Of a stretch of DNA of 64,000 nucleotides, positions 14,970 through 63,947 are shown piece after piece (positions within the stretch are counted from its first letter, which is position 1; each line of letters starts with the position of its first letter). The notes beneath the pieces were generated by a model. That model had not been told where the DNA came from. It made no database searches and worked only from the letters and a program-made list of their open reading frames with translations. The DNA comes from Nitrospirales bacterium (GTDB taxonomy: Bacteria > Nitrospirota > Nitrospiria > Nitrospirales > UBA8639): contig CBDCWC010000002.1 of assembly GCA_965223295.1 (NCBI GenBank), forward strand, positions 305,101 to 369,100. Direction: 5' to 3'. Both the position numbers and the translations under genes were made by a program.

Positions 14970-15023
14970 GGTTTGAGTAGGGGGAATGAGCGTAAGTTAT
15001 TGAGTAATGAAATGAGGTGGAAC

Positions 15024-15425
15024 ATGATAGTACGGATCATCATGTTGGGTTTGGTTTTCCTGCCTAGCGGTCCCTTGTTCGTAAGTGCGGGAAAATGGAG
15101 TGGCTATATCACCGTATCCACAAAGGATGATGTGGTGCTGAGTTATCGACAGCGACTGCAAAAAGACGGGTGGTTTGTGGAATGGCGAGCGGAAAATAAA
15201 GGTGCTGATTGGGTAGAACCATTCACAAAATCTCGGATGTATCATTGTGCAGATGGAACCAAAAACAAGGAAAAAGAGAAAACGCTGGGTCCCTATCCTC
15301 CTGGTGATGTGCGAAGGGGAGGGATCAGGGATAGAGGAATTTGTCCAGGGAGTGAAATCCAGAACGTTGAAGTAGACATTGAGTTGCGTCCAGTTTCTGA
15401 CGCGATTCGAAGGATGTGGCAATAA
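15024..15425 (+). CDS. Secreted hypothetical protein with 2 Cys
   Basis: GAGGT RBS before ATG 15024, signal peptide ending VSA. Confidence 0.7.
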   Translation: MIVRIIMLGLVFLPSGPLFVSAGKWSGYITVSTKDDVVLSYRQRLQKDGWFVEWRAENKGADWVEPFTKSRMYHCADGTKNKEKEKTLGPYPPGDVRRGGIRDRGICPGSEIQNVEVDIELRPVSDAIRRMWQ

Positions 15426-46844: not shown

Positions 46845-48419
46845 GTGAATGAAATTTCGACAACATGGGTACAAGGGCTGAAAAACCCGAAATGTTACTC
46901 GCATTCGGTTGATCAGGTGAGACTGGTAGAAACCCATATTTCTTGGGTGGTATTAACCGGACGGTATGCCTACAAAATTAAAAAACCCGTCGCGTTTTCG
47001 TTTGTGGATTTTTTGACATTGGAAAAGCGTCGGTGGTTTTGTGAGGAAGAAATACGCCTGAATCGTCGATTGGCGCCTGATGTGTACCTGGGGACCGTTC
47101 CTATTTCGGGATCGCCTACTCACCCTCACATTGATGGTCAAGGGCCGCCTTTTGAGTTCGCAGTCAAGATGAAACAATTCTCGTCCGAATCAGAGATGCA
47201 CGAAATTTTGTTTGGTGGAAAAACGGCTGAAAGCACGATTATTCAATTGGCAGATAGGATAGCAATATTTCATGCAGAAATTGACAAGTCCAAAGAGGAC
47301 TCATCCTATGGAAATCCCGATAGGGTTTGGCAAGCCATAAAAGAGTGTTTTGAGGAAATACCCCTCCATTTCCTGAGTCACACGACTCAGAAATGTATGA
47401 CAACAATCAATAGTTGGTTACAGGAAGAATGGCATCGTGTGCACGATGTTTTCCTTCAGCGGAAAAAAACTGGCTTTGTCCGAGAATGTCATGGTGACCT
47501 CCATTTAGGAAATCTTGCCATATTCGAAGGGAACGTATGCGTGTTTGATGCCTTGGAATTTGAGCCGCGTTTGCGCTGGATTGATGTCATGAGTGAGATA
47601 GCCTTTTTAGTGATGGATTTACAAAAAAACGGGCGTTGGGATTTAGCCTTTGTGTTGTTGAATCGCTATGTGGAACAGACGGGGGACTATTATGGCTTGG
47701 CTGTTTTCCGGTTGTATCAGGTCTATCGAGCATTGGTTCGAGCCAAGGTAACTGGTCTACGAATAATGCAGTTAGAAAATCAAAACAAGGACTCGAAACG
47801 AGTTCGCCAAGAGATGGTGGCCTATCTTGATTTAGCGAATCAACTGATCAAGCCACCTGCACCCTTCTTGCTCCTGATGCATGGTGTCTCTGGAGCAGGC
47901 AAGACAACTCTATCGATAGAGGTCATTAAGAGCTTAGGCAGCATTCGCATTCGGTCTGATGTTGAACGAAAGAGGTTGGGTTCGGACAATAGAACTACAA
48001 ACTCAGAGGCAAAGGTGGAAGCGGATTTGTATACCTCAGGCATGACCCAGCGTACGTACGATCGGTTGCAGGAGTTAGCAGGAACGCTTTTGCAGAATGG
48101 GTATTCAGTGGTCGTTGATGCAGCCTTTCTTCGACAATATCAGCGACATCCATTCATACTATTAGCAAAAGAGCGAGGCTGGCCTTTTATCATTTTAGAC
48201 GTCGTTGCTCCCCAGACGGTTTTGGCACAGCGAATCAAGGGGCGTTTGCAAGAAGGGCAAGATGCGTCTGATGCCACGGTTGAAATAATGGAACATCAAC
48301 AGGAAGCCATGGAGTCTTTTATGCCAGCAGAACAATCACATGTAATTCGTGTGGATTCAACCGACCCAGAGTCAATTGTATTGGCCATCAAAAAACTGAA
48401 AAGAATACTTGAAGGTTGA
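46845..48419 (+). CDS. Aminoglycoside-phosphotransferase-like / AAA_33 P-loop kinase fusion
   Basis: ETHISWV, YKIKKPV, ECHGDLHLGN, DALEF, then HGVSGAGKT and IRSDVERKRL. Confidence 0.88.
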   Translation: MNEISTTWVQGLKNPKCYSHSVDQVRLVETHISWVVLTGRYAYKIKKPVAFSFVDFLTLEKRRWFCEEEIRLNRRLAPDVYLGTVPISGSPTHPHIDGQGPPFEFAVKMKQFSSESEMHEILFGGKTAESTIIQLADRIAIFHAEIDKSKEDSSYGNPDRVWQAIKECFEEIPLHFLSHTTQKCMTTINSWLQEEWHRVHDVFLQRKKTGFVRECHGDLHLGNLAIFEGNVCVFDALEFEPRLRWIDVMSEIAFLVMDLQKNGRWDLAFVLLNRYVEQTGDYYGLAVFRLYQVYRALVRAKVTGLRIMQLENQNKDSKRVRQEMVAYLDLANQLIKPPAPFLLLMHGVSGAGKTTLSIEVIKSLGSIRIRSDVERKRLGSDNRTTNSEAKVEADLYTSGMTQRTYDRLQELAGTLLQNGYSVVVDAAFLRQYQRHPFILLAKERGWPFIILDVVAPQTVLAQRIKGRLQEGQDASDATVEIMEHQQEAMESFMPAEQSHVIRVDSTDPESIVLAIKKLKRILEG

Positions 48420-49124
48420 ATTGTCAAAAATCGGGAATCTCTTATGGCTAACAAGATCTTTTGCTTATTTTATGCCATTAGCGCGGATGTTGTGGAGCTA
48501 TCTAAAGGATGCCCAACCTTGTTATTGAGATGGATTGGTTGAGTGTGGGATGTAGAAAAGTATTGTGAGTTCTCTCATATGTCCGCAGCTCGTTAAATCA
48601 AATCTACGACCTTTCTTTTCACCAGGTCTCTTTCCTATCCGTCACATAGTCTTGTCGTGCGCCCGTTTCTTTGGCTCGAAGCGCAGAGTTATGAGACAAC
48701 AAGAGCAGGACGGGATCTGTTGCAATTCCTTCTAGCTTATGTGCCGGCGATGAACGGGTGGTCGTATACATAGTCTATGGGATTCCTTGGAATGGAGTGA
48801 CTGATTCTATTGTGCCTTGAGGAATTGAAAGAAACACGCTCAGTATTGAACTGGGTAAGAAAAGAAAGGGAGAGGTTGGAACTCTTAGATATTGAGGATT
48901 ATTCATGTGTGCCTACAGCTATGAGTATCGTGTCTTACAAGCCCACTATGCATCTAACCATTTTTTGAATGATTTCTGACTCGGGCCTGTCATGTCTGGA
49001 CGCTCCCTAGCGGTACTCTTCTTTCCCGGATAACCTCAAACATTTTCTTGTATAGAAGAGAGACATTATGGTTCACTGATGACAAGAGAAATACTTGCTT
49101 CATTCTTTCCTTTAAATTCACGAT

Positions 49125-51182
49125 ATGGAGGCGACTATTTCATCTGTTCTTTCAACTGACCGTTTGTACAAGACTTTGCTGAGTGTTGCCGAGGTTATTG
49201 CGGTTAATCGGGATCTTCCTGCATTGTTTGAGGCCCTTGCACGGCATATTCCGCAGGTGGTCCATGTGGATTTTCTTGCGTTGGCCCTTCATCACCCTGA
49301 ACGACAGATCATTCAAGATTATATTATCCAAGCAAATGTACCTGCTGATATTGAAGGAAAAAAGGAATGGAGTATAGATAGCCATCCGGCAGGCACCGTG
49401 GTGCAAAGTCAGGAGCCGGTTTTAGTCTCCGATCTCACGATCGATCAACGCTACCCTGACGTGTTTTCCTATATGCGAAAAGATAGGGTAAAGTCCCTGT
49501 GTGCGCTTCCGTTGACGACTGCCGTGAGGCCTTTGGGGGCCTTGATTTTTGCCAGTCGTGAAAAAGGAACTTACCGTGAATCAGATGTTGATTTTCTTTC
49601 ACAAATGGCAAAGCATATTGCGGTAGCCATCGATAATGTTCTTCACGTCCAGGAACTCACCAAAGAACGGGATTGCTCGCGCCTTTTGTTGGAAGTCAAT
49701 AATGCCGTGGTTTCTAATCTAGAGCTAGACGAACTCTTCTCGTCCATTTGCACGTCATTGCGTCGGGTTATCCCTCATCAAATTACCAGTTTGTATCGAT
49801 ATCTGCCTGAAACACATTCCTTCACAAGGCATGTCTTAGATGCGTCAAGTACAAAGGGTGTCCTTCAACCAGGAGAGAGTATTGGCTTTGATGAATTGCC
49901 AGCAGGCCAAGCGGTTTACAACCGTGCGGCTATCGTGATGAATGAGGCAGAGCTAAAAGACAATCAATCACCTACGGCGCAGCAATTGTTAGCTGAAGGT
50001 ATGAAAACCTGTTTTTATGCTCCTCTTGTTGTGCGAGATGAAGTAATCGGCACATTGAACATGGCGAGTTCTCAGGAAGGAGTGTTTAGTGAGGAAGCCT
50101 CCGAATTACTTATGCAAGTGGTCAAACAAATTGCTATTGCGTTCGATAACGCCTTGGCCTACGAAAAAATTCAGACATTAAAAGAAGAACTCGCACAAGA
50201 GAATGTGTATTTAAAAGAAGAGATTCGGACGGAGCAGAATTTTGAGGACATTATTGGAGAGAGTGCCGAACTGAAGGAGGTGCTCCAGCAATTGGAAATC
50301 GTAGCTCCTACGGACTCAACCGTATTGATTCAGGGGGAAACGGGAACAGGAAAGGAGTTGATTGCACGGGCTCTGCATCAACTGAGTTCTCGCAAAGAAC
50401 GGGCGTTTGTCAAGCTGAACTGTGCAGCGATTCCGACAGGTTTATTAGAAAGCGAATTATTTGGGCATGAAAAAGGAGCATTTACCGGAGCCATTGCGAC
50501 GAAAGTTGGCCGATTTGAGCTTGCCCATCGGGGGACAATTTTCCTGGACGAAGTCGGTGAAATTCCTTTGGAGCTGCAATCCAAGTTGTTACGCGTCCTG
50601 CAAGAGCAAGAGTTTGAACGTTTGGGAAGTACGCGCACGATTCAAGTGGATGTGCGCTTGGTGGCGGCGACTAATCGTGATTTGCCCAAAATGGTTGAGA
50701 CTGGACAATTTCGAAGCGATTTGTATTATCGGTTGAGTGTGTTTCCTTTAACGATTCCCGCTCTTCGTCAACGTGTGAAAGACATCCCTATCCTGGTTCG
50801 CTACTTTACCCAACGTTATGCCCAGCGCATGAATAAAACAATTAGCACCATTCCAAGCAAGGCGATGGAAATACTGTCACGCTATCATTGGCCTGGTAAC
50901 ATTCGTGAGTTAGAAAACCTGATCGAACGGGCTGTGATCCTGACGCAAGGTGAAGCACTTGTCATTCCTTTGGCAGAACTCAAAGCGGCACCGCAATTTA
51001 CGAAGCTATCTCCTCAGCCCACCGACACGTTGCAAAACGTCGAACATGATCATATCCTTCAAGCCCTTCGTGAAACGAAATGGGTTGTCGGCGGAGCGGC
51101 CGGGGCAGCCCATCGATTAGGTATGAAGCGAACGACCCTGATCTCAAAAATGAAAAAGCTGAATATCTCCCGCCCACAATAG
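49125..51182 (+). CDS. FhlA-like sigma54-dependent activator (2 GAF + AAA+ + HTH)
   Basis: Two GAF regions, [47 protein letters not shown]. Confidence 0.93.
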
Positions 51183-51187
51183 TTCTT

Positions 51188-51238
51188 GTGTCGTCGCATC
51201 ATCATTTGTCGATATATCGTCATTGATAGTTCGACATA
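51188..51238. promoter_or_regulatory. Enhancer (UAS) copy 1
   Basis: GTGTCGTCGCATCATCATTTGTCGATATATCGTCATTGATAGTTCGACATA; near-identical to 53643-53694; contains palindrome TGTCGATATATCGTCA. Confidence 0.75.
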
Positions 51239-51278
51239 CTTCCTGTTTCTTGTTTTCTTCTGATTTAAAAGCCAGTAA

Positions 51279-51291
51279 AAACAAGTAGTTA
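51279..51291 (+). promoter_or_regulatory. Candidate IHF site
   Basis: AAACAAGTAGTTA, one mismatch from WATCAANNNNTTR, between UAS and sigma54 promoter. Confidence 0.5.
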
Positions 51292-51316
51292 GGAATGAGT
51301 GTGGGCTCTTAGGAGT

Positions 51317-51332
51317 TGGAATGGCCTTTGCG
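51317..51332 (+). promoter_or_regulatory. sigma54 (-24/-12) promoter
   Basis: TGGAATGGCCTTTGCG = GG-N10-GC. Confidence 0.85.
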
Positions 51333-51372
51333 ATGTTCTGGACAGAATATACATTCAAACCAGGAGGTCATC

Positions 51373-51855
51373 ATGAGAAAAGGCATTCATATCATCAGTC
51401 GGTTATTCGCAGTAGCGGGGCTTACTGTTTTGGGACTGAGTATTCCGGCTTGGGCTGTTGAAGAGCCAGCGAACGGCTTGAACCAACTCATCCAAGGATT
51501 CCAAACAGAATGGAGACAACCAGTCTCCTCGGTGATCGAAAAGAGTCCATCCGAGTTCACAGAGTTGAATGTGAATCTCTCAGACATTGGTGGCTCACAT
51601 TTTCATGCCCGAGGTGTTTTTGGTCAATAGATGCAAGAATCCGCAGAGGTGACAAGGCCGATGGATATCAACTTGATGAGGCCACCTGCCTTCTCCTCAT
51701 GGGTAGACAAAGCAGAAACGAAGTTCCCTGCCAGTCGTGTTGGTTCGAAGAAGTCCGTGCTTGGGAAATTGTTCTCCAAAGTAGAGTTTTTACCAAATCG
51801 CTTCACTGTGGCCAGATCAAACAATCCAGAGGGAATGGTGTTGTTTGCATTCTAA
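51373..51855 (+). pseudogene. Secreted hypothetical protein split by one in-frame TAG (or two abutting small genes)
   Basis: AGGAGG RBS, signal peptide, TAG at 51628-51630 followed directly by in-frame ATG and 74 more codons with no separate RBS. Confidence 0.5.
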
Positions 51856-51956
51856 GGCCGCAAGTGGGTCTTTGAAAAAAATATTGTATTGCAACTGCAA
51901 CGATTCTACATTGAATGCACATTATTCAATCATCTATCCATGAGGGAGCTGTAGAC

Positions 51957-52640
51957 ATGAAGGAAATGACTATCATCGTGAGCCTCTTGGGGCTAGGACT
52001 TTTAGTGACTGTTCTGGCGTTTGGGAAACCTGGCCTTTCCCTGAGCGATCAAGAACACCGTTTGTTTGAGGCTGTCGCCAACAATGATGTACTCACGGTG
52101 CAGACCTTAGTGAAGAATGGCGTGAATATCAACACACAGGATGTTCGAGGGCGCACTGCTTTATTGGTCGCAGTCGAGAAGCATGATGTTGAGAGCGCGA
52201 AGGTTTTACTCGATGCAGGCGCGGATGTGAATATTCAAGATCAAAAACAAGATAGTCCGCTCTTATTAGCTGGAGCTGAAGGCATGGTCGACATCATGAA
52301 ACTCATGCTGAAAGCGAAACCAGACTTTACGCTGTATAATCGCTTCGGTGGCACCTCGCTCGTTCCGGCTGCTGAGCGGGGTCATGTGAAGATGGTGAAA
52401 TTGTTAGTGAATACAAAAGTCGATATCGACCATGTCAATCATCTGGGCTGGACAGCCTTGTTAGAGGCCATTGTCCTGAGTGATGGGGGGGCGCGTCATC
52501 AACAAATTGTCCAGATTCTGGTAGATGCCGGAGCGAATGTGAATATTGCTGATAAGGAAGGTGTCACTCCCTTGCAGCATGCCCGACAAAAAGGGTTTCA
52601 AGAGATTGTCAAGATTTTAGAATTGGCTGGAGCCAAATAG
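51957..52640 (+). CDS. Secreted ankyrin-repeat protein
   Basis: Signal peptide; GRTALLVA, SPLLLAGAEG, GGTSLVPAAERGH, GWTALLEA, GVTPLQHA. Confidence 0.92.
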   Translation: MKEMTIIVSLLGLGLLVTVLAFGKPGLSLSDQEHRLFEAVANNDVLTVQTLVKNGVNINTQDVRGRTALLVAVEKHDVESAKVLLDAGADVNIQDQKQDSPLLLAGAEGMVDIMKLMLKAKPDFTLYNRFGGTSLVPAAERGHVKMVKLLVNTKVDIDHVNHLGWTALLEAIVLSDGGARHQQIVQILVDAGANVNIADKEGVTPLQHARQKGFQEIVKILELAGAK

Positions 52641-52691
52641 TCAGAACAGCACAGCATAACTTTTTATCTTACAAGGAGGATCAAACAAACG

Positions 52692-53219
52692 GTGAACACA
52701 CAACGAATCACTGCAAAACTTGGCTTGCTCACTTGTTGTTTCGCGGGACTGATGATTGGGCAGGCCCAAGCGGCGGACTTACCGAAAGAAAGTGTACTGC
52801 CGCTGGCCATGGCAACGAAGGCCGCGCATGCAACCGTCGATAAATGTTTAGCTGATGGCTACCGGGTTAGCGTGACGGTCGTAGACCAAGGTGGAAATAT
52901 TCGTGCCGTCTTACGACAGGATGGCACCGGGCCACACACGCTCGAAAGCAGCCGGAAGAAAGCCTATACCTCAGCCAGTATGAAACAGCCCACGGCGAAG
53001 CTCGCCGACTTAATAGCAAAGATGCCAGCGCTTCAAGGTTTGCAACGCATGAATGACCATATGCTGCTATTAGCTGGCGGGTTGCCGATTAAATTCGGTG
53101 ATGCCGTGGTTGGCGGGATTGGTGTGGGTGGCGCACCGGGCGGCCATCTAGATGCAGCTTGCGCACAGGCAGGTCTCGATAGTATCGGTGCCGCGCCACA
53201 GCTTGAGGCGAAAAAATAA
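52692..53219 (+). CDS. GlcG/HbpS family heme-binding protein, secreted
   Basis: Signal peptide, SVTVVDQGG, SRKKAYTS, GGLPI, VGGIGVGGAPGGHLDAACAQAG. Confidence 0.92.
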   Translation: MNTQRITAKLGLLTCCFAGLMIGQAQAADLPKESVLPLAMATKAAHATVDKCLADGYRVSVTVVDQGGNIRAVLRQDGTGPHTLESSRKKAYTSASMKQPTAKLADLIAKMPALQGLQRMNDHMLLLAGGLPIKFGDAVVGGIGVGGAPGGHLDAACAQAGLDSIGAAPQLEAKK

Positions 53220-53252
53220 ATTTCAGAAACTTTATAAGATCGTTAAATAAGG

Positions 53253-53289
53253 AAGAGGCGGCTCTATTGAGGCCGCCTCTTTTTTTTTT
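53253..53289 (+). terminator. Rho-independent terminator
   Basis: AAGAGGCGGC...GCCGCCTCTT hairpin followed by a long T run. Confidence 0.92.
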
Positions 53290-53411
53290 GAGAACAAGTG
53301 TCGTAACACCATTTCTCACTCGGAGTGTTGAATAATGTGTGAAAACTTGTACTTCCGTTGACAGACAGTGTCAGGTTCATTGCTCTCTGACGTGTTAACG
53401 AGTTTTTCTCT

Positions 53412-53489
53412 GGTCATGCCCGCAGTACGAAGCGGGCATCCAGTCCTCTCTTGTCGTCAACCTGGATTCCCGCCTTCGCGGGAATGACC
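53412..53489. repeat. REP/dRS3-like inverted pair
   Basis: GTCATGCCCGC..GCGGGCATCCAG ... CTGGATTCCCGCCTTCGCGGGAATGAC, a typical REP doublet. Confidence 0.85.
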
Positions 53490-53642
53490 TGGCTCCCAAA
53501 CTCCTATGGCTCCTGTCTTAAACCTTATTGAACATTGTCAGAGAGATGAAATATAAGTTTCTACAAATAATGAGGATATCAAAGGCTGCATTTCGCCATA
53601 ACACCCTTGCCGATCAACAGACCTTTGCTTGATTTATTTGCC

Positions 53643-53694
53643 GTGTCGTCTCATCATCATTCGTCGATATGTCGTCATGTCTTTGTTCGACACA
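53643..53694. promoter_or_regulatory. Enhancer (UAS) copy 2
   Basis: GTGTCGTCTCATCATCATTCGTCGATATGTCGTCATGTCTTTGTTCGACACA; ends GTGTCG/CGACAC are a perfect inverted pair. Confidence 0.75.
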
Positions 53695-53772
53695 CGCTTC
53701 TTGCCGTTTTGGCAATCTAGAAAAACCTCCATTCATTTAAGTGTTTGTAGATAATCTAGTACTCTGTGGCCT

Positions 53773-53788
53773 TGGCATGCCTTATGCG
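53773..53788 (+). promoter_or_regulatory. sigma54 (-24/-12) promoter
   Basis: TGGCATGCCTTATGCG = GG-N10-GC, 131 bp from UAS start (130 bp for copy 1). Confidence 0.88.
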
Positions 53789-53869
53789 TGGTTTAAACAT
53801 GAGAAGGGCAACAAGATCAAGAGTATGAAACCCACATCTTAGACACTTTTATCTACAGGAGGCAAAATC

Positions 53870-54367
53870 ATGAAAGCATTTTTTCAAACAGATGACAGAT
53901 GGACCGGGTTGATCTTACGAGTCATGTTGGCCGTGGTTATTTTCCCTCATGGTGCCCAAAAGCTGTTGGGATGGTTTGGTGGAAACGGGTTTGAGGGAAC
54001 TATGGGATTTTTCACACAGCAAGGGATGCCATGGTTAATCGCATTCTTAGTCATTATTGGTGAGGCGCTGGGAGCGGTGGCATTAGTGCTGGGGTTCCTG
54101 ACTCGATTTTCGGCAGGAAGTATTGGAATCATTATGCTGGGCGCTATTGCAATGGTGCATTGGCCACATGGATTCTTTATGAATTGGTTTGGTCAACAGG
54201 CAGGGGAGGGATTTGAATTTCATCTCTTAGTGATTGGCATGACTCTCGCTTTAATCGTCAATGGTGCTGGAAAGTGGTCAGTTGATGGCGTAATTGCACA
54301 AAAATTCAGTGCGTCTTCATTCGAAAACAATGATGTCGGTCAAAAATTGGCCACATCAGCGGCCTAA
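53870..54367 (+). CDS. DoxX family membrane protein (CatD/YqjF-like)
   Basis: [49 protein letters not shown]. Confidence 0.92.
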
Positions 54368-54389
54368 TTTATATGGGAAGAAAACGCAT

Positions 54390-54646
54390 ATGCTTCGCTT
54401 GACTCTCGAAAAACCTTCTTCTGGATCAACCCTTACACTCGAAGGACGATTGGTTGGTCCGTCCAGTCCGGCCCTGAGCTTGTCGAAGCGAAGGCCACGG
54501 CCATTGTGGGAGAGGTCACCGCGAGAGCATCGCAGGATTCGAAACAGAAACCTATGGCCTTGTCCCGACATAATCTCTATCGCAACTTCTGTACGCTTGA
54601 TCATGGTGAGTTTGTTTACGAAATCACCTGTGGAGAAAAGGAGTGA
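54390..54646 (+). pseudogene. Probable internally deleted, frameshifted STAS-like gene
   Basis: MLRLTLEKPSSGSTLTLEGRLVGP resembles the start of small STAS-like proteins; a different frame then gives ELVEAKATAIVGEVT, resembling their C-terminus. Based on recalled similarity. Confidence 0.4.
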
Positions 54647-54651
54647 GTGGT

Positions 54652-54852
54652 ATGAAGCATTTTATTGCTATGCTTATACTGACCTTCTTCACATCCAGCA
54701 TGGCCGTCACCAAAGATCTTCCTCCCAACACGGCAAAGATCGTGTACGTTCATGCTGGTCCCGAAGTGATCAGGACACAACTAATGCGATCGCCTGTGCC
54801 GTATGCGGGCTTTAGCCAAAGTGACCTGCATGATGCCCTAGCTTCAAATTAG
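54652..54852 (+). CDS. Small secreted hypothetical protein (66 aa)
   Basis: AAGGAG RBS, signal-like MKHFIAMLILTFFTSSMA. Confidence 0.45.
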   Translation: MKHFIAMLILTFFTSSMAVTKDLPPNTAKIVYVHAGPEVIRTQLMRSPVPYAGFSQSDLHDALASN

Positions 54853-54904
54853 CGGGCGGCCACCACTCAAAAATAACGAACGCTCTGGAGAGAAAGGAGG
54901 CGTT

Positions 54905-55351
54905 ATGAAAACACAATATTTGGGACATGTCGTGTTTTATGTCAAAGATTTGGAACAGTCGCTCAAATTTTATCGAGACCTTTTAGGATTTCAAGAAGTT
55001 GGACGTGTGTTTGAGGGAAAGGCTGTGGCTTTAACCACGGGCCGGACTCACCAGGAGCTGCTCTTGATTCAAGTGGGTGATGTCCCAGGGCCTGCATCTG
55101 GTTTGCGTCGAGGCCTGTACCATATTGGGCTTAAGATTGGTGATAGCCTAGATGAACTCCGGTCTGCTAAAAAAGAAATTGAACAAGCTGGAATTTCAAT
55201 TTCTGGAATGAGCGATCATACGGTAAGTCAGAGTCTCTATCTTCATGATCCTGATAGAAATGAAGTCGAGTTGTATGTTGATGATCCGGCAAGCGATTGG
55301 CAGAGGAATCCCATGTTGGTCTTATCGCCTATTAAGCCTCTTGTGTTGTAA
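54905..55351 (+). CDS. VOC/glyoxalase family protein (catechol 2,3-dioxygenase-like)
   Basis: LGHVVFYVKDLEQSLKFYRDLLG, GLYHIGL, SLYLHDPDRNEVELY. Confidence 0.9.
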   Translation: MKTQYLGHVVFYVKDLEQSLKFYRDLLGFQEVGRVFEGKAVALTTGRTHQELLLIQVGDVPGPASGLRRGLYHIGLKIGDSLDELRSAKKEIEQAGISISGMSDHTVSQSLYLHDPDRNEVELYVDDPASDWQRNPMLVLSPIKPLVL

Positions 55352-55458
55352 GCAATCGTGTGATGATTCTAGACGCCGGATGGCGGTTGAAGGGTTTGAA
55401 TGAAAATTTCGGCAATAGAACACGCTCATCTAGTTCAATTTTTTACACAGGCCATCTT

Positions 55459-56691
55459 ATGATGAAACAGATCGCGACCTTTCCTTTACTCTTGGCCTTT
55501 TTGGCTACGGCTTTAGGTCTCACCGCGTGCGAACAAGAAGCCGGAACGGCACCAGCGCCTCCGCCACCGGAAGTGAAAGTGATTACTGTTGAGCCAAAGA
55601 CCATTCCTGATGAGGTAGAGTTTATTGGTCAAACGGATTCATTTCGGCCTGTCGAGATTCGAGCTCAAGTGACAGGAATTATTAAGAAAGTATTTTTTAC
55701 TGAAGGGCGAGATGTGCAAAAAGGCGATAAGCTCTATCTGATTGATCCCATCCCATTTAAAGCGGCAGCTGGAAGTGCTAAAGGGCAAGTGGGGCAGACA
55801 GTCGCACGTTTAGCAAAAGCCCGGGCAGAGTTAGCCCGCGTTCGGCCTCTGGTTGAAGAACAAGCCGTGAGTCAAAAAGATGTGGACGACGCAATAGCTG
55901 AAGAGTTAGCGGCCGAGTCGGCGCTTGTCTCGGCGAAAGCCGAATATGACAAAGCTCGCTTTGACTTGAAAAATACCCTGATTGTTGCGCCTGTGTCTGG
56001 GCGAATTGAAAGAAGTCAGCTTTACGAAGGCCGTCTCGTGTCAGCACAAACAGACCTTCTCACCAGTATTCATCAAATGGACCCGATGTACGTGAATGTC
56101 AATGTGCCAGAAAGTTATATCCTACGGCGGCAACGCGAGTTGTCTGAACAGCGTGTGGAACGTCCCGATCTCTTCCAGCTGCGGGGGCTTATGACGATGG
56201 CCGATGGCTCAACGTATCCCCATGAGGGGACATTGGATTTCGCGGGAACGGGGTTTCGTTCAGAAACCGGTTCGTTGCAGTCTCGTTTTGTGTTTCCCAA
56301 CATTCGTCAACGCTCAGTTCCTGGTGATCGGGATGATCGTCCAATTTATGCGCTGTTTCCAGGCCAGTTCGTCAAAATTCTGGTTAAAGGGTATATGCGA
56401 ACAAACGCGATGCTGGTGCCGCAGCGCGCGGTGCAGCAAGGGCCGCAAGGGACATTTCTGTTTGTTGTGGGAGAGAATGATGTCTGTGACCTTCGTCCAG
56501 TTAAAGCCAGCTTATGGAAAGGTGCTGAATGGGTCATTGAAGATGGGTTGCAACATGGAGACCGGGTAGTCGTTGAAGGATTTCATCGAGTTCGACCCGG
56601 CAATCAAGTCAAACCGATTCCCTATCAGGCTACGCTGTCCCCAACCCAAGAGCATACTGTAGACGAGTCGAAATCCGCAGAAGTGTCATGA
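55459..56691 (+). CDS. RND efflux membrane-fusion lipoprotein (AcrA/MexA family)
   Basis: Lipobox LTAC, VEIRAQVTGII, EGRDVQKGDKLYLIDP, APVSGRI, LVPQRAV. Confidence 0.93.
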   Translation: MMKQIATFPLLLAFLATALGLTACEQEAGTAPAPPPPEVKVITVEPKTIPDEVEFIGQTDSFRPVEIRAQVTGIIKKVFFTEGRDVQKGDKLYLIDPIPFKAAAGSAKGQVGQTVARLAKARAELARVRPLVEEQAVSQKDVDDAIAEELAAESALVSAKAEYDKARFDLKNTLIVAPVSGRIERSQLYEGRLVSAQTDLLTSIHQMDPMYVNVNVPESYILRRQRELSEQRVERPDLFQLRGLMTMADGSTYPHEGTLDFAGTGFRSETGSLQSRFVFPNIRQRSVPGDRDDRPIYALFPGQFVKILVKGYMRTNAMLVPQRAVQQGPQGTFLFVVGENDVCDLRPVKASLWKGAEWVIEDGLQHGDRVVVEGFHRVRPGNQVKPIPYQATLSPTQEHTVDESKSAEVS

Positions 56692-59600
56692 GCCCTCAAT
56701 TCTTTATTGACCGTCCGATCTTTGCGTCAGTGGTCTCGATCATGATTATGGTTGTCGGTCTGGTGGCCATTCAAACGCTGCCTGTGGCGCAGTTTCCAGA
56801 AATTACTCCTCCCATGGTCCAGATTGATGCCGATTATCCCGGTGCGAGTGCTGAGGTTGTTGCCGAATCGGTCGCACGGCCCATAGAACTGCAGCTTCCT
56901 GGTATCGACAATTTACTCTATTACGACTCCACGAGCACGAACGATGGTCATATGACAATGCGGCTGACGTTCGAGATTGGGACAGATGTGGATATTGCTC
57001 AGGTCCAAACGCAAAATCGGCAGAAACTGGCCGAGCCTCAATTGCCTCCAGAAGTTGTGCGTCAAGGGATTTCGGTAAAAAAAACCTCTCCTAATCTGCT
57101 TGCGGTGATTGTGCTGGATTCCGATAACCCAAATCATGACGCGTTTTTTCTATCTAACTATGCCATTCTTCGTGTGCTCGACAATATTAAGCGATTGCCC
57201 GGCGTTGGCGATGCGTCGGTCTACGGTCAACAAAGTTACAGTATGCGCATTATTCTCGATCCTGTTCGAATGGCTCAGCTTCAGATCACTCCAACTGATA
57301 TTGCGACAGTGGTCCAAGAGCAAAACCGTAATTTTCCTGCTGGGACTCTCGGCCGGGAGCCTGCCTTGCCTGCGACTGAATTAACCATTCCAGTGATTAC
57401 GCAAGGTCGGTTGACGGAAGTCAAAGATTTTGAAGAGCTCATCGTCCGTGCCCTGCCTGATGGATCAATCGTCCGGCTGAGTGACGTGGCCCGGATTGAA
57501 CTTGGTGCTCAATCTTATAATCTCGAAGGCCAGTTTAATGGAGAGTCCACTGCATTACTGATTACGTTCTTATCTCCGGGGGCCAATGCGCTTGAAACGA
57601 TTGGACGTATTCGAACTGAATTAAAAGCCCTGACGCCAGCCTTTCCGCAGGGGATGACCTATGACATTCCCTATGACACGACTCGCTTTATCGAAGTGTC
57701 GATTAAGGAAGTTCTCCAGACCTTACTCGAGGCCATGGTCCTGGTCCTACTCGTGGTCTTTGTGTTTTTACAAAGCTGGCGTGCGACATTGATTCCAGCA
57801 CTTGCCGTGCCGGTTTCTTTAATTGGGACGTTTGCGGGAATGGAGGCTTTAGGGTTCTCGATTAATACATTAACCCTCTTTGGCATGGTCTTGGCAATCG
57901 GTATTGTCGTTGATGATGCGATTGTCGTAGTGGAAAATGTGGAACGGCACATGACCCAAGGGGGACTCTCGCCGAAAGCGGCGGCAAAGCAAGCGATGTT
58001 TGAGGTCACCGGACCTGTCATTGCCATTGTCTTGGTTTTGAGTTCTGTGTTTATTCCTGTCGCATTTTTAGGCGGGATTACGGGTGAACTCTACAAGCAA
58101 TTTGCGATCACGATCGCGTTGTCTGTTGCACTTTCTGGACTGGTGGCACTGACGTTAAGTCCAGCTCTCTGTGCACTGGTTTTGAAACCCCAACATGAAG
58201 CCCCCCAAGGCTATTGGCGACTCTTTAATAACAGCTTTGATTGGGTGCAACAACGATATTGTGCGATTGTTGCCGTGATGCTCAGGCACACCGCTCTGTC
58301 TACTCTGGTGTTTGCTGTTTTGCTATTGGGAACCTGGGGTCTATTGAAGGTTGTGCCTGGAAGTTTTTTGCCTGAAGAAGATCAAGGCTATTTTATCGTC
58401 GCGGCGCAGTTGCCTGACGGAGCTTCTAAACAACGAACAGATTCGGTGCTTCAAGAACTTGCAGATTTTTTTGGAGATGACTCTGCGGTGTACGGGACTC
58501 AAGCGCTCTCTGGACAAAATTTTATCTTTAATACCCGAGGAAGCAATAGCGCGACGATGTTTGTCCCTCTCAAGCCATGGGACGAGCGAACAGATCCAGC
58601 TTCGCATGTGAAAGCGCTGATCGGACGGGCCTACCAAAAGTTTGCGGAAATTACCGAAGGCCTTGTGTTGGCCTTCAATGCCCCGTCTATCCGCGGGTTA
58701 GGTGCGACAGGCGGCTTCTCTTTACAGGTGCAGGATCCGAGCAGTCGCGAGTTTTCTGAGTTTGCTGACGCGGTTCAAGCTTTTCTGGAAAAGGCCAAAG
58801 AAGATTCAGCTATCGGCAATGCCACGTCGAGTTTCCGCGTGACGGCTCCTCGTATGTATGCACGGGTGAATCGTGAACGCGCCAAGGCGTTAGGTATTCC
58901 TATTTCCGAAGTCTTTGATACGATGCAGGCCTACTTCGGGAATTTATACATCAATGATTTTGTGAAATTTGGCCGTGTGTACCGTGTCCAAACAGAAGCC
59001 GAGCCTGAGTATCGGTCCAGTCCTGAAGATATCAGCAAAATTTATGTGCGTGCGCAAAATGGACTCAGCGCCTCGATGGTTCCACTCAATACGGTTGTGA
59101 CCATGGAATTAGCCAGTGGGCCAGACCCCGTGACACATTTCAATGGTTTTAATACGGCTTTGGTGATGGGTTCGGCAGCGCCTGGATTCAGTTCAGGGCA
59201 GGCGTTGGATGCGTTGGAGCGAGTGGCGCAAGAGGTGTTGGTGCCCGAAGGGTATAGCATCGATTGGAGCGGGATTTCTTTTCAAGAACGAAAGGTTGGC
59301 GGGCAAACCACCATGATCTTACTCCTTGGACTCTTAATGGTCTTTCTGGTTCTTGCGGCTCAATACGAAAGTTGGTCCATTCCTTTTGCTGTTCTCTTTG
59401 CTGTGCCGTTTGGCATTTTGGGAGCCGTGACCGCTGTTTGGCTGAGAGGGTTGGACAATGATATTTACTTCCAGATTGGATTACTCACATTAATTGGATT
59501 GTCGGCCAAGAATGCCATCCTGATTATTGAGTTTGCCAATGAGCTCTATCATGAAGGCCGTTCTGCCGTGGAGGCAGCGCTGGAAGCCGCCCGACTCCGT

Positions 59601-59861
59601 TTCCGTCCTATTATTATGACATCAATGGCCTTTATCCTGGGCGTGATTCCTCTCGTGGTCGCCTCTGGAGCCGGTGCGGCGAGCCGCCATTCCATCGGTA
59701 CTGGAGTATTTGGAGGGATGTTAGCTGCCACATTTCTTGCGGTCTTTTTCGTTCCGTTCTTTTCTGTCGTGATCATGAAATTTCGGAAGGATACGCGAGA
59801 GGTTGATGAAGCACCTTATTTGACGGTCAAAGAAGCCCTTCAGCAACAAGAAGAATTGTAA
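56688..59861 (+). CDS. RND efflux permease (HAE1, AcrB/MexB family)
   Basis: FFIDRPIFA, IGIVVDDAIVVVEN, GLSAKNAILIIEF, RFRPIIMTS. Confidence 0.96.
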   Translation: MSPQFFIDRPIFASVVSIMIMVVGLVAIQTLPVAQFPEITPPMVQIDADYPGASAEVVAESVARPIELQLPGIDNLLYYDSTSTNDGHMTMRLTFEIGTDVDIAQVQTQNRQKLAEPQLPPEVVRQGISVKKTSPNLLAVIVLDSDNPNHDAFFLSNYAILRVLDNIKRLPGVGDASVYGQQSYSMRIILDPVRMAQLQITPTDIATVVQEQNRNFPAGTLGREPALPATELTIPVITQGRLTEVKDFEELIVRALPDGSIVRLSDVARIELGAQSYNLEGQFNGESTALLITFLSPGANALETIGRIRTELKALTPAFPQGMTYDIPYDTTRFIEVSIKEVLQTLLEAMVLVLLVVFVFLQSWRATLIPALAVPVSLIGTFAGMEALGFSINTLTLFGMVLAIGIVVDDAIVVVENVERHMTQGGLSPKAAAKQAMFEVTGPVIAIVLVLSSVFIPVAFLGGITGELYKQFAITIALSVALSGLVALTLSPALCALVLKPQHEAPQGYWRLFNNSFDWVQQRYCAIVAVMLRHTALSTLVFAVLLLGTWGLLKVVPGSFLPEEDQGYFIVAAQLPDGASKQRTDSVLQELADFFGDDSAVYGTQALSGQNFIFNTRGSNSATMFVPLKPWDERTDPASHVKALIGRAYQKFAEITEGLVLAFNAPSIRGLGATGGFSLQVQDPSSREFSEFADAVQAFLEKAKEDSAIGNATSSFRVTAPRMYARVNRERAKALGIPISEVFDTMQAYFGNLYINDFVKFGRVYRVQTEAEPEYRSSPEDISKIYVRAQNGLSASMVPLNTVVTMELASGPDPVTHFNGFNTALVMGSAAPGFSSGQALDALERVAQEVLVPEGYSIDWSGISFQERKVGGQTTMILLLGLLMVFLVLAAQYESWSIPFAVLFAVPFGILGAVTAVWLRGLDNDIYFQIGLLTLIGLSAKNAILIIEFANELYHEGRSAVEAALEAARLRFRPIIMTSMAFILGVIPLVVASGAGAASRHSIGTGVFGGMLAATFLAVFFVPFFSVVIMKFRKDTREVDEAPYLTVKEALQQQEEL

Positions 59862-59862
59862 G

Positions 59863-61281
59863 ATGCCATTAATTTTCGTTTTTATGCTTATGGCTCTCAG
59901 TGGCTGTGCCGTTGGCCCTGATTATTCTCGGCCTGAGTTGTCAGTGCCTCAAGATTTCCAGCGAGCTGAAACGGCTAGCTCTGTCGAGTCACTAGCGAAT
60001 GTTCCCTGGTGGGAACTCCTAAAAGATTCGACTTTGCAAAAACTTGTTCATACGGCACTTGAAAAAAACAGGGATCTCCAGCAGGCGGTCGCAAGCATCG
60101 AAGAATTCGAAGCTCGTTTGTATGTGGCACGAACCGGTTTTGTGCCACAAGCCACAGGGAGCGCCAGATTTCCCGCTCTGGGGCGAACCAGTAACGGTGT
60201 CCGGTTTCCGGGTGCCCCTGGAACATTTAATTATTCCCTTCAGGGCGATTTATCCTGGGAACTGGATGTGTGGGGGCGCATTCGCCGATCAACAGGAGCG
60301 GCATTAGCTGATCTGTTAGCTCGTGAAGAGAATCAACGAGCGGTTGTGCTTAACTTGGTGAGTGGTGTGGCCCAATCTTATTTTGATTTATTGCAATTCG
60401 ATATGCAGCTCGATATTGCTAAAGAAACCCTTGAATCCTGGGAGGAATCGGTAAAGATTGCACAGGCGAGGCTGAAAAGCGGCGTCACCTCACGGCTTGA
60501 TGCCGATCAATTCGAAGGTGAGCGAGCGAATGCGGCGGCGCGAGTGGCACAGCTTGAACGTTCGACGATTCAGAAAGAAAATGAGCTGAGTGTTCTTCTT
60601 GGCCAGCACCCCACTCCCATTGCCAGAGGGACGCGTCTGACCGATCAAGTGGTCCCACCTGAAGTGCCCGCGGGGTTACCCTCAGAATTATTGCGTCGTC
60701 GTCCAGATATTGTGCGAACGGAACATGAGTTGGTGGCGGCCACGGAACGAATCGGAGTGGCGAAGGCTGACCGCTTTCCAAAGATTAGCCTCACAGGTAT
60801 TCTGGGCGTGGCGAGCCCCCGGCTTTCCAAACTAATTGGATCAGACACCAAATTTGGTGCGGCTGGGTTCGACATTTTGGGTCCGGTGTTGAATGCCCAA
60901 ACACTGGGTTTTCAGCAAGATGTGGCGGAAGCCCAAGCCAAGCAAGCTCTCGCGCAATACGAGCAAACAGTTCTTGTGGCATTCAAGGAAGTAGAGGATG
61001 CGTTAATTGCGGTGCAGACTGCCCGGCGGCAGCGTCAGGCTCAAGTTGAGCAGGTGGAGGCTCTGCGTTCAGCTCTGCGGCTTTCGAATCTTCGCTATAA
61101 GGGTGGAGTCACGAGTTACATTGATGTCCTCATTGCTAAGCGCAGTTTGTTTGAAGCCGAATTGTCTCTGGCCGAAACTCACCGTCTTCACCTGGTCTCG
61201 ATAGTCCAGTTGTACAAGGCCTTAGGTGGAGGCTGGCAAGTCGAAAACTCACCAAATATGACGGCAAAGAGTACACGCTAG
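59863..61281 (+). CDS. Outer-membrane efflux lipoprotein (OprM/NodT family)
   Basis: Lipobox LSGC, VGPDYSRP, SWELDVWGRIRR, LLRRRPDI, LYKALGGGW. Confidence 0.95.
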   Translation: MPLIFVFMLMALSGCAVGPDYSRPELSVPQDFQRAETASSVESLANVPWWELLKDSTLQKLVHTALEKNRDLQQAVASIEEFEARLYVARTGFVPQATGSARFPALGRTSNGVRFPGAPGTFNYSLQGDLSWELDVWGRIRRSTGAALADLLAREENQRAVVLNLVSGVAQSYFDLLQFDMQLDIAKETLESWEESVKIAQARLKSGVTSRLDADQFEGERANAAARVAQLERSTIQKENELSVLLGQHPTPIARGTRLTDQVVPPEVPAGLPSELLRRRPDIVRTEHELVAATERIGVAKADRFPKISLTGILGVASPRLSKLIGSDTKFGAAGFDILGPVLNAQTLGFQQDVAEAQAKQALAQYEQTVLVAFKEVEDALIAVQTARRQRQAQVEQVEALRSALRLSNLRYKGGVTSYIDVLIAKRSLFEAELSLAETHRLHLVSIVQLYKALGGGWQVENSPNMTAKSTR

Positions 61282-61410
61282 AGGTTGTCTAAAAAATCGT
61301 TCACTGTCCTGGTCTTCTCGATGTTTCAGGAGCACGGCGAGAAGCTGTATGATTCTTATGGCTGCCTTTATTGAAAGGCCTATTGGCTAGTCCTCCTACT
61401 TGTATTAATT

Positions 61411-62226
61411 TCAGAGACCGAACTTCGACTTGATGCCTTTCAAAAAGGTGGTGTCATCGGCTACCTTGCGTTGGGCTATCATCTGAGCAGCATCGTCACC
61501 GGCTGTGTAGCGAAGCTGGTTGCTTCCGTCAGTTGCTGCTTTGTAAATCACTTCAGATACGACAACAGGTTCCGACCCCGCCTCACCAAGTGGTCCCATT
61601 GCCTCGGTTGCCTTGCCAACTAACGCTTGATACTCCTGTATGGTCTCATCATTCGAAAAATCGAATGACCGGCCACCAAAATCGGTTTTAACCATGCCTG
61701 GCTCGACAATCTTGACCTTCACTCCAATCGCTTCCATCTCAAAACTGAGTGCTTCTGACAATCCCTCCACTGCGAACTTTGACCCGTGATAAAGCGTGCC
61801 AAGAGGAAACCCTACTTTGCCTCCAACTGACGCAATGTTGATGATGATTCCCGAGTGGTTTCTTCGAAAGTGAGGTATGATGGCCTTCGTGGTTTCCAAA
61901 AGCCCGATTACGTTTACGTCGAATTGCCGTCGAATCTTCTCAACGGGTACTGCTTCTAGCACGCCATAGGCTCCGTACCCAGCGTTGTTGAGCAGCACGT
62001 CAATTTTTCTGAAACGCTCGATTCCTGCCGCAACGGCTTGGTTAATCGAGGCACTGTCTAGAACGTCCAGTCTTTCAACCAGAACGTTGTCGTACTTTTT
62101 GAGGTCTTGCTCAGCTTCGGGCTTCCGCATGGTCGCAATGACGTTCCACCCCTTTTTCTGAAAGTATTGTGCTGTCATGCGACCGATGCCGCTGCTTGCT
62201 CCGGTAATCAGAATAGTCTTGGCCAC
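61411..62226 (-). CDS. Short-chain dehydrogenase/reductase
   Basis: TGASSGIG, NNAGYG, YHGSK (YxxxK), VEPG; AGGAG RBS before GTG. Confidence 0.95.
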   Translation of the reverse strand: MAKTILITGASSGIGRMTAQYFQKKGWNVIATMRKPEAEQDLKKYDNVLVERLDVLDSASINQAVAAGIERFRKIDVLLNNAGYGAYGVLEAVPVEKIRRQFDVNVIGLLETTKAIIPHFRRNHSGIIINIASVGGKVGFPLGTLYHGSKFAVEGLSEALSFEMEAIGVKVKIVEPGMVKTDFGGRSFDFSNDETIQEYQALVGKATEAMGPLGEAGSEPVVVSEVIYKAATDGSNQLRYTAGDDAAQMIAQRKVADDTTFLKGIKSKFGL

Positions 62227-62278
62227 GGTCTCTATCTCCTCACGTACAGGATTGATGTGTTTCTATTTAGTGCTGTTG

Positions 62279-63886
62279 TTAAAAGTCCTTGCGTTTCAAT
62301 TTGCCAACCAGTAAAACCCAAAGCATGGCCCCGATACGACTCCACGATGGCCGGATTGCATATTTAGTGGCCTGTTTGCAAAGGTCATAAAAGTTTCGCT
62401 TGTTGGTCAGCAGCATGTGGCCTGGCGACATGAAAGAGCAGGTAACAATTGACTTGTCCACGTTTTCGAAACTCATCAGATTTCCGAAGTTCCCGTGACC
62501 TGAAACAAACTCCTTACCTTCTTCGTTGCCGCCCCAGGTCAGATACGGATTCATGAAAACAAAGGGCGGCATGGTGTTCACCGCAATCCCGCCATATTCA
62601 AGGTTGGTAACTGCCTGGTCGACAATTCCCTGATGCTTTGTCTGGGTGTCATCATCGACCAGAATGCAGGCCCCAAGAGTTCCGAGCAGCTTGGAATTAC
62701 AGAAACCTACCGCTTGGGAAAGGAACGCTGAAGCATCTGCTGGGGTGTCTAAGGCAACCTCACCAAAGACCTGGCAGAACGCTTCATGGGTAACGCCAAA
62801 ACCGTTTTCGGGAATGTCCTCAATGAGCTGCACCTCAGAGTTGGCTATGGCGCCGTCTTCAGGACGAATGACCTTGCCGCTGGGATGTTGCATGCGAAAC
62901 TCGGCAAATATTTTCTCAGTTCCAGGATAGTAGGTAGTTGATCCAGGCGTTCCCTCACGTATAGCTTTCTCCATTGCATCTAGAAAGTTACGACGTTGTG
63001 GCCAATTGCGACACGTCACGAGCGTTTGGACCCGGCCGCAAACGGCTCCGCCGTTTAGTTTTCCCATCGTGACAATCTGCATCGCGTGATGCTCTATTTC
63101 TTTCTCGGTCCACGGTCGGTCTCCAGGAATAATGATGCAGGGATTGTTTCCCCCGCATTCTGAAATCAATTCCGCTGGTGAACTGGCCATGATAGCCTTC
63201 GCGGTGGAACTGCCGCCAGTGAAGTAAATCTGCTTGAGTCGGTTATCGCCAGTGAGATCTTGCCCTCCATCGTGATTGCAAAAACTGACCGCACGGTAAT
63301 CTACAAGTGGCTTGAGTATCTCTTCCCAAACGGCATCGCTTTCGGCGTTTAGATGATGCGGTTTGTGCACCACAGCACAGTTCTCAATAAATAAGGCTCG
63401 AATCATCTCGAATGATGACCCATAGTTGCCCGCACCAAGTACAGCGATAATGCCGCCTTCTTTATCCAACGGGTTTACTTGCTTGGGCTCACCTTTGACT
63501 CGCAAGATTCCCTTCTGGTCGGAATTGAGAAGCTTGTCCTTTGCCTGAATCGGAAAAACGACCAAGTCATACAGTCCATCCGCAACTTTGTGTGTTTCCT
63601 TCGGTTGCGGCATCTCCCCTTTCATCAATAGTTGATAGACGTCGATGCAAGCGCTAACATTGCTTGCCAGCGGGACGACGGTGGCCTGCATTGAGGTTCC
63701 CACCTGATGAATGTTGGATGATTCGTTCGGCGTGAGTTTCTTCATCCGGCAATCGGCCTCGACCAATTTGGGCCATTGGCGTTCAATGCTCTGCTGAACC
63801 TCTTTCAGCAGTCGCAGCTTCTCTTTGGCTGAAGTCTTCCTCCACTTCTCTGGTTCTACCCAATCGAGGGCTTCGTTTGCTTTCAT
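62279..63886 (-). CDS. Aldehyde dehydrogenase superfamily protein (divergent)
   Basis: GAGNY, VHKP, YFTGGS, SECGGNNP, NGGAVC (catalytic Cys), EAFCQV; GGGAG RBS before ATG 63886. Confidence 0.8.
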   Translation of the reverse strand: MKANEALDWVEPEKWRKTSAKEKLRLLKEVQQSIERQWPKLVEADCRMKKLTPNESSNIHQVGTSMQATVVPLASNVSACIDVYQLLMKGEMPQPKETHKVADGLYDLVVFPIQAKDKLLNSDQKGILRVKGEPKQVNPLDKEGGIIAVLGAGNYGSSFEMIRALFIENCAVVHKPHHLNAESDAVWEEILKPLVDYRAVSFCNHDGGQDLTGDNRLKQIYFTGGSSTAKAIMASSPAELISECGGNNPCIIIPGDRPWTEKEIEHHAMQIVTMGKLNGGAVCGRVQTLVTCRNWPQRRNFLDAMEKAIREGTPGSTTYYPGTEKIFAEFRMQHPSGKVIRPEDGAIANSEVQLIEDIPENGFGVTHEAFCQVFGEVALDTPADASAFLSQAVGFCNSKLLGTLGACILVDDDTQTKHQGIVDQAVTNLEYGGIAVNTMPPFVFMNPYLTWGGNEEGKEFVSGHGNFGNLMSFENVDKSIVTCSFMSPGHMLLTNKRNFYDLCKQATKYAIRPSWSRIGAMLWVLLVGKLKRKDF

Positions 63887-63947
63887 GTTAGAACTCCCGA
63901 GGTTCACATGTTTCGCTGGACGGTCGATGCTGCTTGCGATTACACTG

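Follow-up and report, generated by a model that had tools for sequence, protein, structure and literature searches.

The window analyzed here, a 64,000-nucleotide stretch (G000:C2:305101-369100; contig CBDCWC010000002.1) of the 3.78-Mb, 47% G+C genome of a Nitrospirales bacterium (GCA_965223295.1, here called G000), harbors a gene for an FhlA-family sigma-54 enhancer-binding protein (EBP) followed by two operons, each preceded by an array of operator-like sites (upstream activating sequences, UAS 1 and UAS 2) and a sigma-54-type promoter (P1 and P2; Table 1). Operon 1 encodes a secreted protein, an ankyrin-repeat protein and an HbpS-like protein, and operon 2 comprises doxX, the remnants of two further genes, a VOC gene and the genes of an RND efflux pump. 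The public contigs nearest to the window are titled as Nitrospirales or Nitrospirae metagenome-assembled genomes, and a search of positions 48000–62000 against Rfam found no RNA family.

Table 1 Features of the activator locus, with positions counted from the first nucleotide of the window.
Feature	Position	Strand	Basis and details
FhlA-family sigma-54 EBP, 685 aa	49125..51182	+	Pfam, NCBIfam, BLASTP
Enhancer UAS 1	51189..51236	+	Site A 51189-51204 TGTCGTCGCATCATCA; site B 51207-51222 TGTCGATATATCGTCA; half-site C 51231-51236 TCGACA
IHF-like site, copy 1, AAACAAGTAGTTA	51279-51291	+	Between UAS 1 and P1; conserved block in 15-module alignment
Sigma-54 promoter P1 TGGAATggcctTTGC	51317-51331	+	GG 51318-9, GC 51330-1; 110 bp past start of site B
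Secreted protein gene, 161 codons, in-frame TAG	51373..51855	+	No Pfam family
Ankyrin-repeat protein, N-terminal signal or anchor	51957..52640	+	Pfam Ank_2 4e-41
Secreted HbpS-like (GlcG/DUF336) protein	52692..53219	+	Pfam HbpS-like 3e-32
Intrinsic terminator closing operon 1	53245..53290	+	Inverted repeat; −27.4 kcal/mol, z −6.15, then T10 run
Enhancer UAS 2	53644..53692	+	Site A 53644-53659 TGTCGTCTCATCATCA; site B 53662-53677 CGTCGATATGTCGTCA; half-site C 53687-53692 TCGACA
IHF-like site, copy 2, ATTTAAGTGTTTG, one mismatch	53735-53747	+	Between UAS 2 and P2; conserved block in 15-module alignment
Sigma-54 promoter P2 TGGCATgccttATGC	53773-53787	+	111 bp past start of site B
DoxX-family membrane protein	53870..54367	+	Pfam DoxX 7.5e-22
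STAS-domain gene remnant, internal deletion and frameshift	54390..54575	+	Three-frame comparison with intact 91-103-aa relatives
Secreted metallo-beta-lactamase-fold protein remnant: signal peptide and first residues, 69 codons	54643..54852	+	Comparison with relatives
Single-domain VOC protein, 148 aa (glyoxalase/dioxygenase/Fos-type)	54905..55351	+	Pfam Glyoxalase 2e-15
Tripartite HAE1-type RND pump	55360..61281	+	NCBIfam; adaptor 55360-56691, permease 56688-59861, outer-membrane factor 59863-61281

The activator comprises two GAF domains, a sigma-54-interacting AAA+ domain, an AAA lid and a C-terminal HTH_8 domain according to Pfam, and both its Walker A motif (GETGTGKE) and the GAFTGA motif of the AAA+ domain are intact. 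It shares 39% sequence identity with FhlA from Escherichia coli K-12 over residues 18–683 (BLASTP), and its residues 20–683 align to profile positions 16–688 of the 692 in the NCBIfam FhlA model NF011958. The FhlA-like, GAF-sensing activator proposed in the initial annotation, which had been made from the sequence alone, is thus a full-length FhlA homologue. As its score of 566.4 bits falls below the curated equivalog cut-off of 830 bits, it is a homologue of FhlA and not an FhlA equivalog. The NCBIfam NorR model matched residues 293–681 (3e-117) with 392 bits, and its curated cut-off of 476 bits was not reached either. When the N-terminal 360 residues were compared to solved structures, the match was limited to the C-terminal helix of one GAF domain, and nothing informative about a ligand was obtained. 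The genome encodes rpoN (Sigma54_DBD, 198 bits; G000:C3:1901322-1901804) and approximately 21 strong sigma-54 activator genes (PF00158) in 3.8 Mb, a very sigma-54-rich regulatory set. Upstream, a 705-bp non-coding stretch holding no array, no −24/−12 match and no notable repeat separates the activator gene from an ORF encoding 524 residues (46845–48419, + strand) with an AAA_33 or zeta-toxin-like kinase domain at its C-terminus.

UAS 1 begins 7 bp past the activator stop codon. Near-identical non-coding blocks at 51188 and 53643 had been noted initially, and both were recovered (51188–51223 and 53643–53678; 36 nt, 92% identity), the second copy lying 2455 bp downstream and the similarity running on to TTCGACA if a 1-nt indel is allowed. 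Each array consists of a 16-bp site A (TGTCGTCNCATCATCA), 2 bp, a site B, 8–9 bp and a half-site C (TCGACA). The proposed site type, TGTCG-N6-CG(A/T)CA, described real sites but is better written as TGNCGA-N4-TCGNCA, the form of the 16-bp near-palindromic site B. No third copy of the 36-mer was present in the 3.78-Mb genome at up to 10 mismatches. A composite scan, which combined a B-type site (at most two mismatches) with a −24/−12 pattern 95–150 bp downstream, gave 16 matches genome-wide; four fell on sites A and B of the window's two modules (each comprising an array, an IHF-like site and a promoter), and the other 12 compare with a chance expectation of 12.4. Double matches to A and B were confined to these two modules, so that the search for further enhancer copies recommended in the initial annotation ended with two arrays only. 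Two other scan designs were discarded. A loose scan for any two TGNCG-N6-CGNCA sites 17–19 bp apart proved too permissive, with 92 matches including dispersed terminator-like repeats, although its close matches were again the two window arrays only, and a scan for hexamer clusters overlooked the true arrays because their A sites are degenerate. The false positives of the loose scan included a dispersed repeat, TGACGTGAGCACGGAA...TGGCGAGAACGCCGCTGGCGGCTTTTTTCAACAG, present in at least 10 copies (for example at C2:242513, C2:266794, C2:290704, C3:314034, C3:994186 and C3:1152775) and resembling a terminator-bearing miniature inverted-repeat transposable element or a repetitive extragenic palindromic element.

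Both P1 and P2 carry GG and GC elements at the canonical spacing, matching the TGGCAC-N5-TTGCW pattern, and the distances given initially from the start of each block to the GG were exact (130 bp, from 51188 to 51318, and 131 bp, from 53643 to 53774); measured from the start of the array to the TGG they amount to 128–129 bp. The bare −24/−12 pattern occurs five times in the window against 2.9 expected, which is not above chance; what carries weight is therefore the pairing of array with promoter and its conservation in 22 modules. An IHF-like site, which sits approximately 26–38 bp before the TGG, had been recorded for the first copy and is indeed present there, but it is not confined to it, the second copy differing by one mismatch; three genes of the HU/IHF family are found in the genome. 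Ribosome-binding sites (AGGAGG) follow at 51362 and 53857, with transcription starts expected near 51342 and 53798. The terminator proposed to end operon 1 folds stably (Table 1).

The module is not peculiar to this genome. Among 201 sampled genomes of the order Nitrospirales, 104 encode full-length relatives of the activator (E ≤ 1e-150), and in a survey of 22 loci the array, IHF-like site and promoter were found together as 22 modules from 16 genomes, all sharing the A-N2-B-N8-C arrangement. Site B precedes the TGG by 110–113 bp in the family of the window and by 111–128 bp in other families, and in many of the fetched orthologues no more than a few bases separate the activator stop codon from the array. 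When 15 modules of the window's family were aligned, the three sites, the −24/−12 elements, an A-rich patch and the IHF-like motif (A..CA-N5-TT.T) stood out as conserved amid diverged spacers. Comparison of the window proteins with related loci by tblastn further revealed a recurrent but shuffled gene set beside the activator, encoding DoxX, STAS, secreted metallo-beta-lactamase (MBL)-fold, VOC, RND pump, secreted ankyrin and HbpS-like proteins, and this neighborhood adjoins activator orthologues of 55–82% identity. Modules precede doxX, which is the first gene past the module in many relatives, the VOC gene or the ankyrin operon, and in one genome lie directly before the gene of the pump adaptor. 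The view of the activator as repurposed is thereby supported, albeit for the whole order and not for G000 alone.

Two variations on this arrangement were observed. In a paralogue clade from one genus (L016, L018, L020 and L022; approximately 65% identical), a gene starting MQGFLDHIVLNIEDDE, with a candidate glyoxalase/VOC fold, begins no more than about 30 bp past the activator gene, and modules occur upstream of the VOC gene preceding the activator and before doxX further downstream (L054–L058). In L001, the locus of the closest relative (14168–15229), the intact second array is separated from doxX by about 1 kb of different sequence, no −24/−12 match occurs at the usual distance and the VOC gene is followed by no RND pump, indicating a rearranged operon.

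The recognition helix of the HTH_8 domain, KRTTLISK, links the activator to the arrays in several ways. The helix (KRTTLxSK) is nearly identical in E. coli FhlA (KRTTLLSRMKRL; wider stretch GLKRTTLLSRMKRL), and among the approximately 21 EBPs of the genome the window activator is its sole carrier. The upstream regions of hyc-hyp and fdhF, for which half-sites were taken straight from the E. coli enhancer-region sequences, each contain three TGWCGA/TCGWCA hexamers against 0.2 expected. Across 42 loci with at least three half-sites within 110 nt past the activator stop codon, the residue at position x of KRTTLxSK was compared to the majority base N of TGNCGA/TCGNCA: glutamine was paired with C in 24 of 28 loci, threonine, histidine or serine with A in all eight, and isoleucine with T in all five, while the single locus with leucine, the residue of E. 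coli FhlA, had a mixture of T and A. On a tree built without the HTH region, the pairing of T, H or S with A pointed in the same direction in four of four independent pairs and that of Q with C in two to three of four, with none opposite. In each of four related genomes (G171, G093, G083 and G101), a T paralogue is accompanied by A-type sites and a Q paralogue by C-type sites, which speaks against base composition as the source of the covariation. A strict operator type for each clade (T-, A- or C-type by family) was considered and rejected, as arrays mix types; site B in the window reads TGTCGA...TCGTCA. The covariation supports direct binding of the arrays by the activator, and together with the position of the arrays, the hexamers shared with FhlA targets and the uniqueness of the helix it leads us to regard the activator as their probable binder.

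Based on these observations, we consider it likely, with a probability of roughly 80%, that the FhlA-family activator switches on both operons via the two arrays and their sigma-54 promoters. We infer binding, sigma-54 dependence, operon extent and signal from the sequence features, their conservation and the residue-base covariation, all of which were seen directly. In the mechanism that we propose, activator dimers would occupy sites A, B and C through their C-terminal HTH domains, and the tandem GAF domains, on sensing a small molecule or a redox signal, would free the AAA+ domain to form an active hexamer. IHF would bend the spacer DNA at the conserved IHF-like site and allow the activator to contact sigma-54 RNA polymerase 110–111 bp downstream, where ATP hydrolysis would remodel the closed complex and open P1 and P2. 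The former promoter would drive the genes of the secreted protein, the periplasmic ankyrin protein and the HbpS-like protein, and the latter those of DoxX, the VOC protein and the RND efflux pump. Several points weigh against this interpretation: the −24 element of P1 is off consensus (TGGAAT), transcription of the pump genes from P2 across approximately 540 bp of pseudogene remnants is an assumption, the covariation reflects about four independent switches, too few for significance (best sign test p 0.125), and three genes of the regulon, the first gene of operon 1 and the STAS and MBL genes, have decayed in G000.

The genes of both operons are those named in the initial annotation, with three refinements. 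The secreted protein of operon 1 is the product of a 161-codon gene cut by a TAG codon (51628–51630) into ORFs of 85 and 74 codons; L001, from the closest relative, reads CAG there, and the stop codon reflects a genuine nonsense mutation or else a sequencing error. The longest ORF of the ankyrin gene starts at 51915, but as orthologues begin with MKEMTIIV, the start is probably the ATG at 51957; the protein is 83–90% identical in relatives. For the HbpS-like protein, the best solved relative was the Streptomyces extracellular heme-binding protein HbpS (3fpv, 4e-26), and its sequence identity is 94% in three loci and 60–63% in two others. No relative of the DoxX protein was found among solved structures. 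In operon 2, the STAS remnant has an internal deletion with a frameshift, and what had been described as a small protein is an N-terminal remnant of an MBL-fold protein. Both genes are intact in L001, L039, L043 and L057, and of the intact relatives, a STAS protein matched STAS_2 weakly and a 297-residue MBL protein matched Lactamase_B (7.7e-13). The VOC protein, 74–95% identical in 12 related loci, showed weak matches to extradiol dioxygenases, glyoxalases and Fos-type enzymes. Its gene ends 8 bp before that of the pump adaptor, and no terminator-like site was found on the + strand from doxX to the pump, which in relatives, too, is found downstream of the modules and the proteins of which are 72–93% identical there. 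Convergent with the pump operon, on the − strand (61411–63907), lie genes for a short-chain dehydrogenase (271 aa) and an aldehyde-dehydrogenase-like protein (542 aa), which may have a link to detoxification; neither an array nor a sigma-54 promoter precedes the pair.

Since three of its genes have decayed, the circuit may be losing function in G000. Taken further, the premature TAG, the deletion and frameshift in the STAS gene and the truncation of the MBL gene could mean that the circuit is a decaying relic whose ancestral wiring has outlived a regulon that is no longer induced or useful. We regard this as unlikely, as decay has spared the activator, the two arrays, the two promoters and the doxX, VOC, ankyrin, HbpS and pump genes, and the VOC protein, the HbpS-like protein in three of five loci and the pump are more conserved than the activator itself, with its 55–82% identity.

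A second alternative concerns the signal alone and leaves the wiring untouched, namely that the activator has kept the sensing of formate, or of a similar small carboxylate, known from E. coli FhlA, in which case the regulon would respond to formate or organic acids. It draws on the homology to FhlA over the full length, the N-terminal GAF region included, with the FhlA model covering residues 20–683, and on Nitrospira being reported formate users with "FhlA" annotated in all their genomes (PMC5596200). In the alignment, however, conservation appears to be far lower in the N-terminal half of the activator than in its AAA+ and HTH parts, and the score is well short of the equivalog cut-off. The absence of formate hydrogenlyase asserted in the initial annotation was upheld in that no such target was found: no match to the formate dehydrogenase H alpha subunit in G000 exceeded the curated cut-off, and no array lies near the Fdh-alpha-like or HycE-like genes of the genome. 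The two best Fdh-alpha-like matches adjoin HycE-like matches of 31–35% identity, a layout that is a candidate for that of complex I operons (NuoG, NuoD). An anti-activator of the HycA type was not seen, though no search was aimed at one. As had also been proposed, the probable targets are instead genes of detoxification, efflux and periplasmic stress, and DoxX, VOC, MBL, RND, HbpS and ankyrin proteins have no link to formate metabolism; a retained response to formate thus seems quite improbable to us. The combination of periplasmic ankyrin and HbpS-like proteins recalls AnkB of Pseudomonas aeruginosa and HbpS of Streptomyces, both linked to peroxide stress. As the gene content resembles these and DoxX-VOC stress systems, our best guess for the signal, in place of formate, is oxidative stress or an organic electrophile resembling a quinone or an aldehyde.

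The arrays could alternatively be operators of another DNA-binding protein, such as a repressor encoded elsewhere, with the adjacency of the activator being incidental. Their binding by the activator is, after all, read from sequence, and the genome encodes many other regulators besides its EBPs. Such a coincidence is nevertheless very unlikely, given that the array directly follows the activator stop codon across the order and keeps a fixed, helical-phase-like distance to the −24/−12 promoter, that its hexamers recur in the E. coli FhlA enhancer regions and covary with a residue of the activator helix, and that no other EBP in G000 has the KRTTLxSK helix. Finally, that the similar blocks merely reflect a recent duplication or a dispersed mobile repeat, as the stretch just upstream of UAS 2 might suggest, is scarcely credible: the arrays lie outside the repeats and occur twice in the genome at up to 10 mismatches, their similarity ends at the array while the spacers differ, and orthologous loci retain the array even where protein identity is as low as 55%. 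The stretch in question, 53332–53620, is built of dispersed repeats, namely an approximately 235-bp element in three copies (the two others, at about 89% identity, at C2:991864-992094 and C3:447467-447706) and an approximately 55-bp element in at least 20 copies, and contains the GC-rich hairpins CCCGCAGTACGAAGCGGGCA and TTCCCGCCTTCGCGGGAA; it stops at 53620, short of UAS 2 at 53644.

The main nitrite oxidizers of soils, oceans and wastewater plants are Nitrospira and its relatives, and to our knowledge almost nothing is known of gene regulation in these bacteria. Sigma-54 EBPs with adjacent enhancers are textbook systems, and HAE1-type RND pumps are normally under the control of TetR- or MarR-type repressors, which makes control by sigma-54 and a GAF sensor unusual. 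Camejo et al. (2017) named "FhlA" as the sole transcription factor common to all Nitrospira, with comammox genomes lacking its regulon (PMC5596200), and other papers place sigma-54 regulators beside nxrAB (PMC6606698, PMC7522533). In the literature searched (Nitrospira with DoxX, sigma-54/GAF/efflux, and Nitrospira RND or glyoxalase transcriptomes), no description of such a system was found, and the connection of an FhlA-family sensor to a regulon of efflux and detoxification genes appears to be undescribed. The broader proposition, that the multi-GAF FhlA-like activators of the Nitrospirales govern a so far undescribed stress regulon of efflux and detoxification genes under sigma-54, with a residue-base code (Q with C; T, H or S with A; I or L with T or W), is put forward tentatively, and we consider it less likely than not. 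If true, a code of one residue and one base would keep two or three paralogous circuits within one genome free of cross-talk, and a role would be found for the "FhlA" of all Nitrospira, the comammox strains that lack formate hydrogenlyase among them. The locus, a coherent circuit made of standard parts, bears on this open question, as it may explain the presence of "FhlA" in Nitrospira that lack its classical targets by activators that carry their own readable operators. The covariation could serve as a simple means to predict and re-engineer the operator specificity of a Fis-type HTH domain, and the ligand, if found, would indicate a stress relevant to nitrifiers.

The closest known parallels each share part of this design. 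Regulons of DoxX-like and VOC-type enzymes that are induced by quinone-like electrophiles are known from Bacillus subtilis and Staphylococcus aureus, where MhqR and CatR/YodB control MhqO/MhqP and CatE/CatD. The likeness to these regulons lies in gene content alone, the DoxX and VOC components; their regulators are MarR-type repressors acting on sigma-70 promoters, and they include no RND pump. The quinone response of MhqR is supported by PMC6798810. The Pseudomonas putida PP2810-13 operon, controlled by CbrB, sigma-N and IHF, has a sigma-54 promoter and three activator subsites, as in the present modules (PMC6296734); CbrB, unlike the activator described here, is a two-component response regulator with non-palindromic subsites, belonging to another family and answering another signal.

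Among receiver-less EBPs with GAF-AAA+-HTH architecture, NorR from E. coli assembles its active oligomer on three closely spaced sites and drives the norVW detoxification operon. The Nitrospirales activator resembles it in being a receiver-less, presumably GAF-gated EBP with a cluster of three sites and a putative detoxification operon, but NorR has a single GAF domain, in which a non-heme iron senses NO, and recognizes GT-N7-AC sites. The closest likeness is to E. coli FhlA (and HyfR), with which the activator shares the GAF-GAF-AAA+-HTH_8 order, in the case of FhlA with 39% full-length identity, a near-identical recognition helix and the same TGWCGA/TCGWCA half-site hexamers upstream of a −24/−12 promoter. 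It differs in the spacing of the half-sites, which form N4 palindromes in a regular A-N2-B-N8-C array here and are separated by N9 and N11 in E. coli, in a ligand that is probably not formate, and in its probable targets, which are genes of detoxification, efflux and periplasmic stress in place of formate dehydrogenase H and hydrogenase 3.

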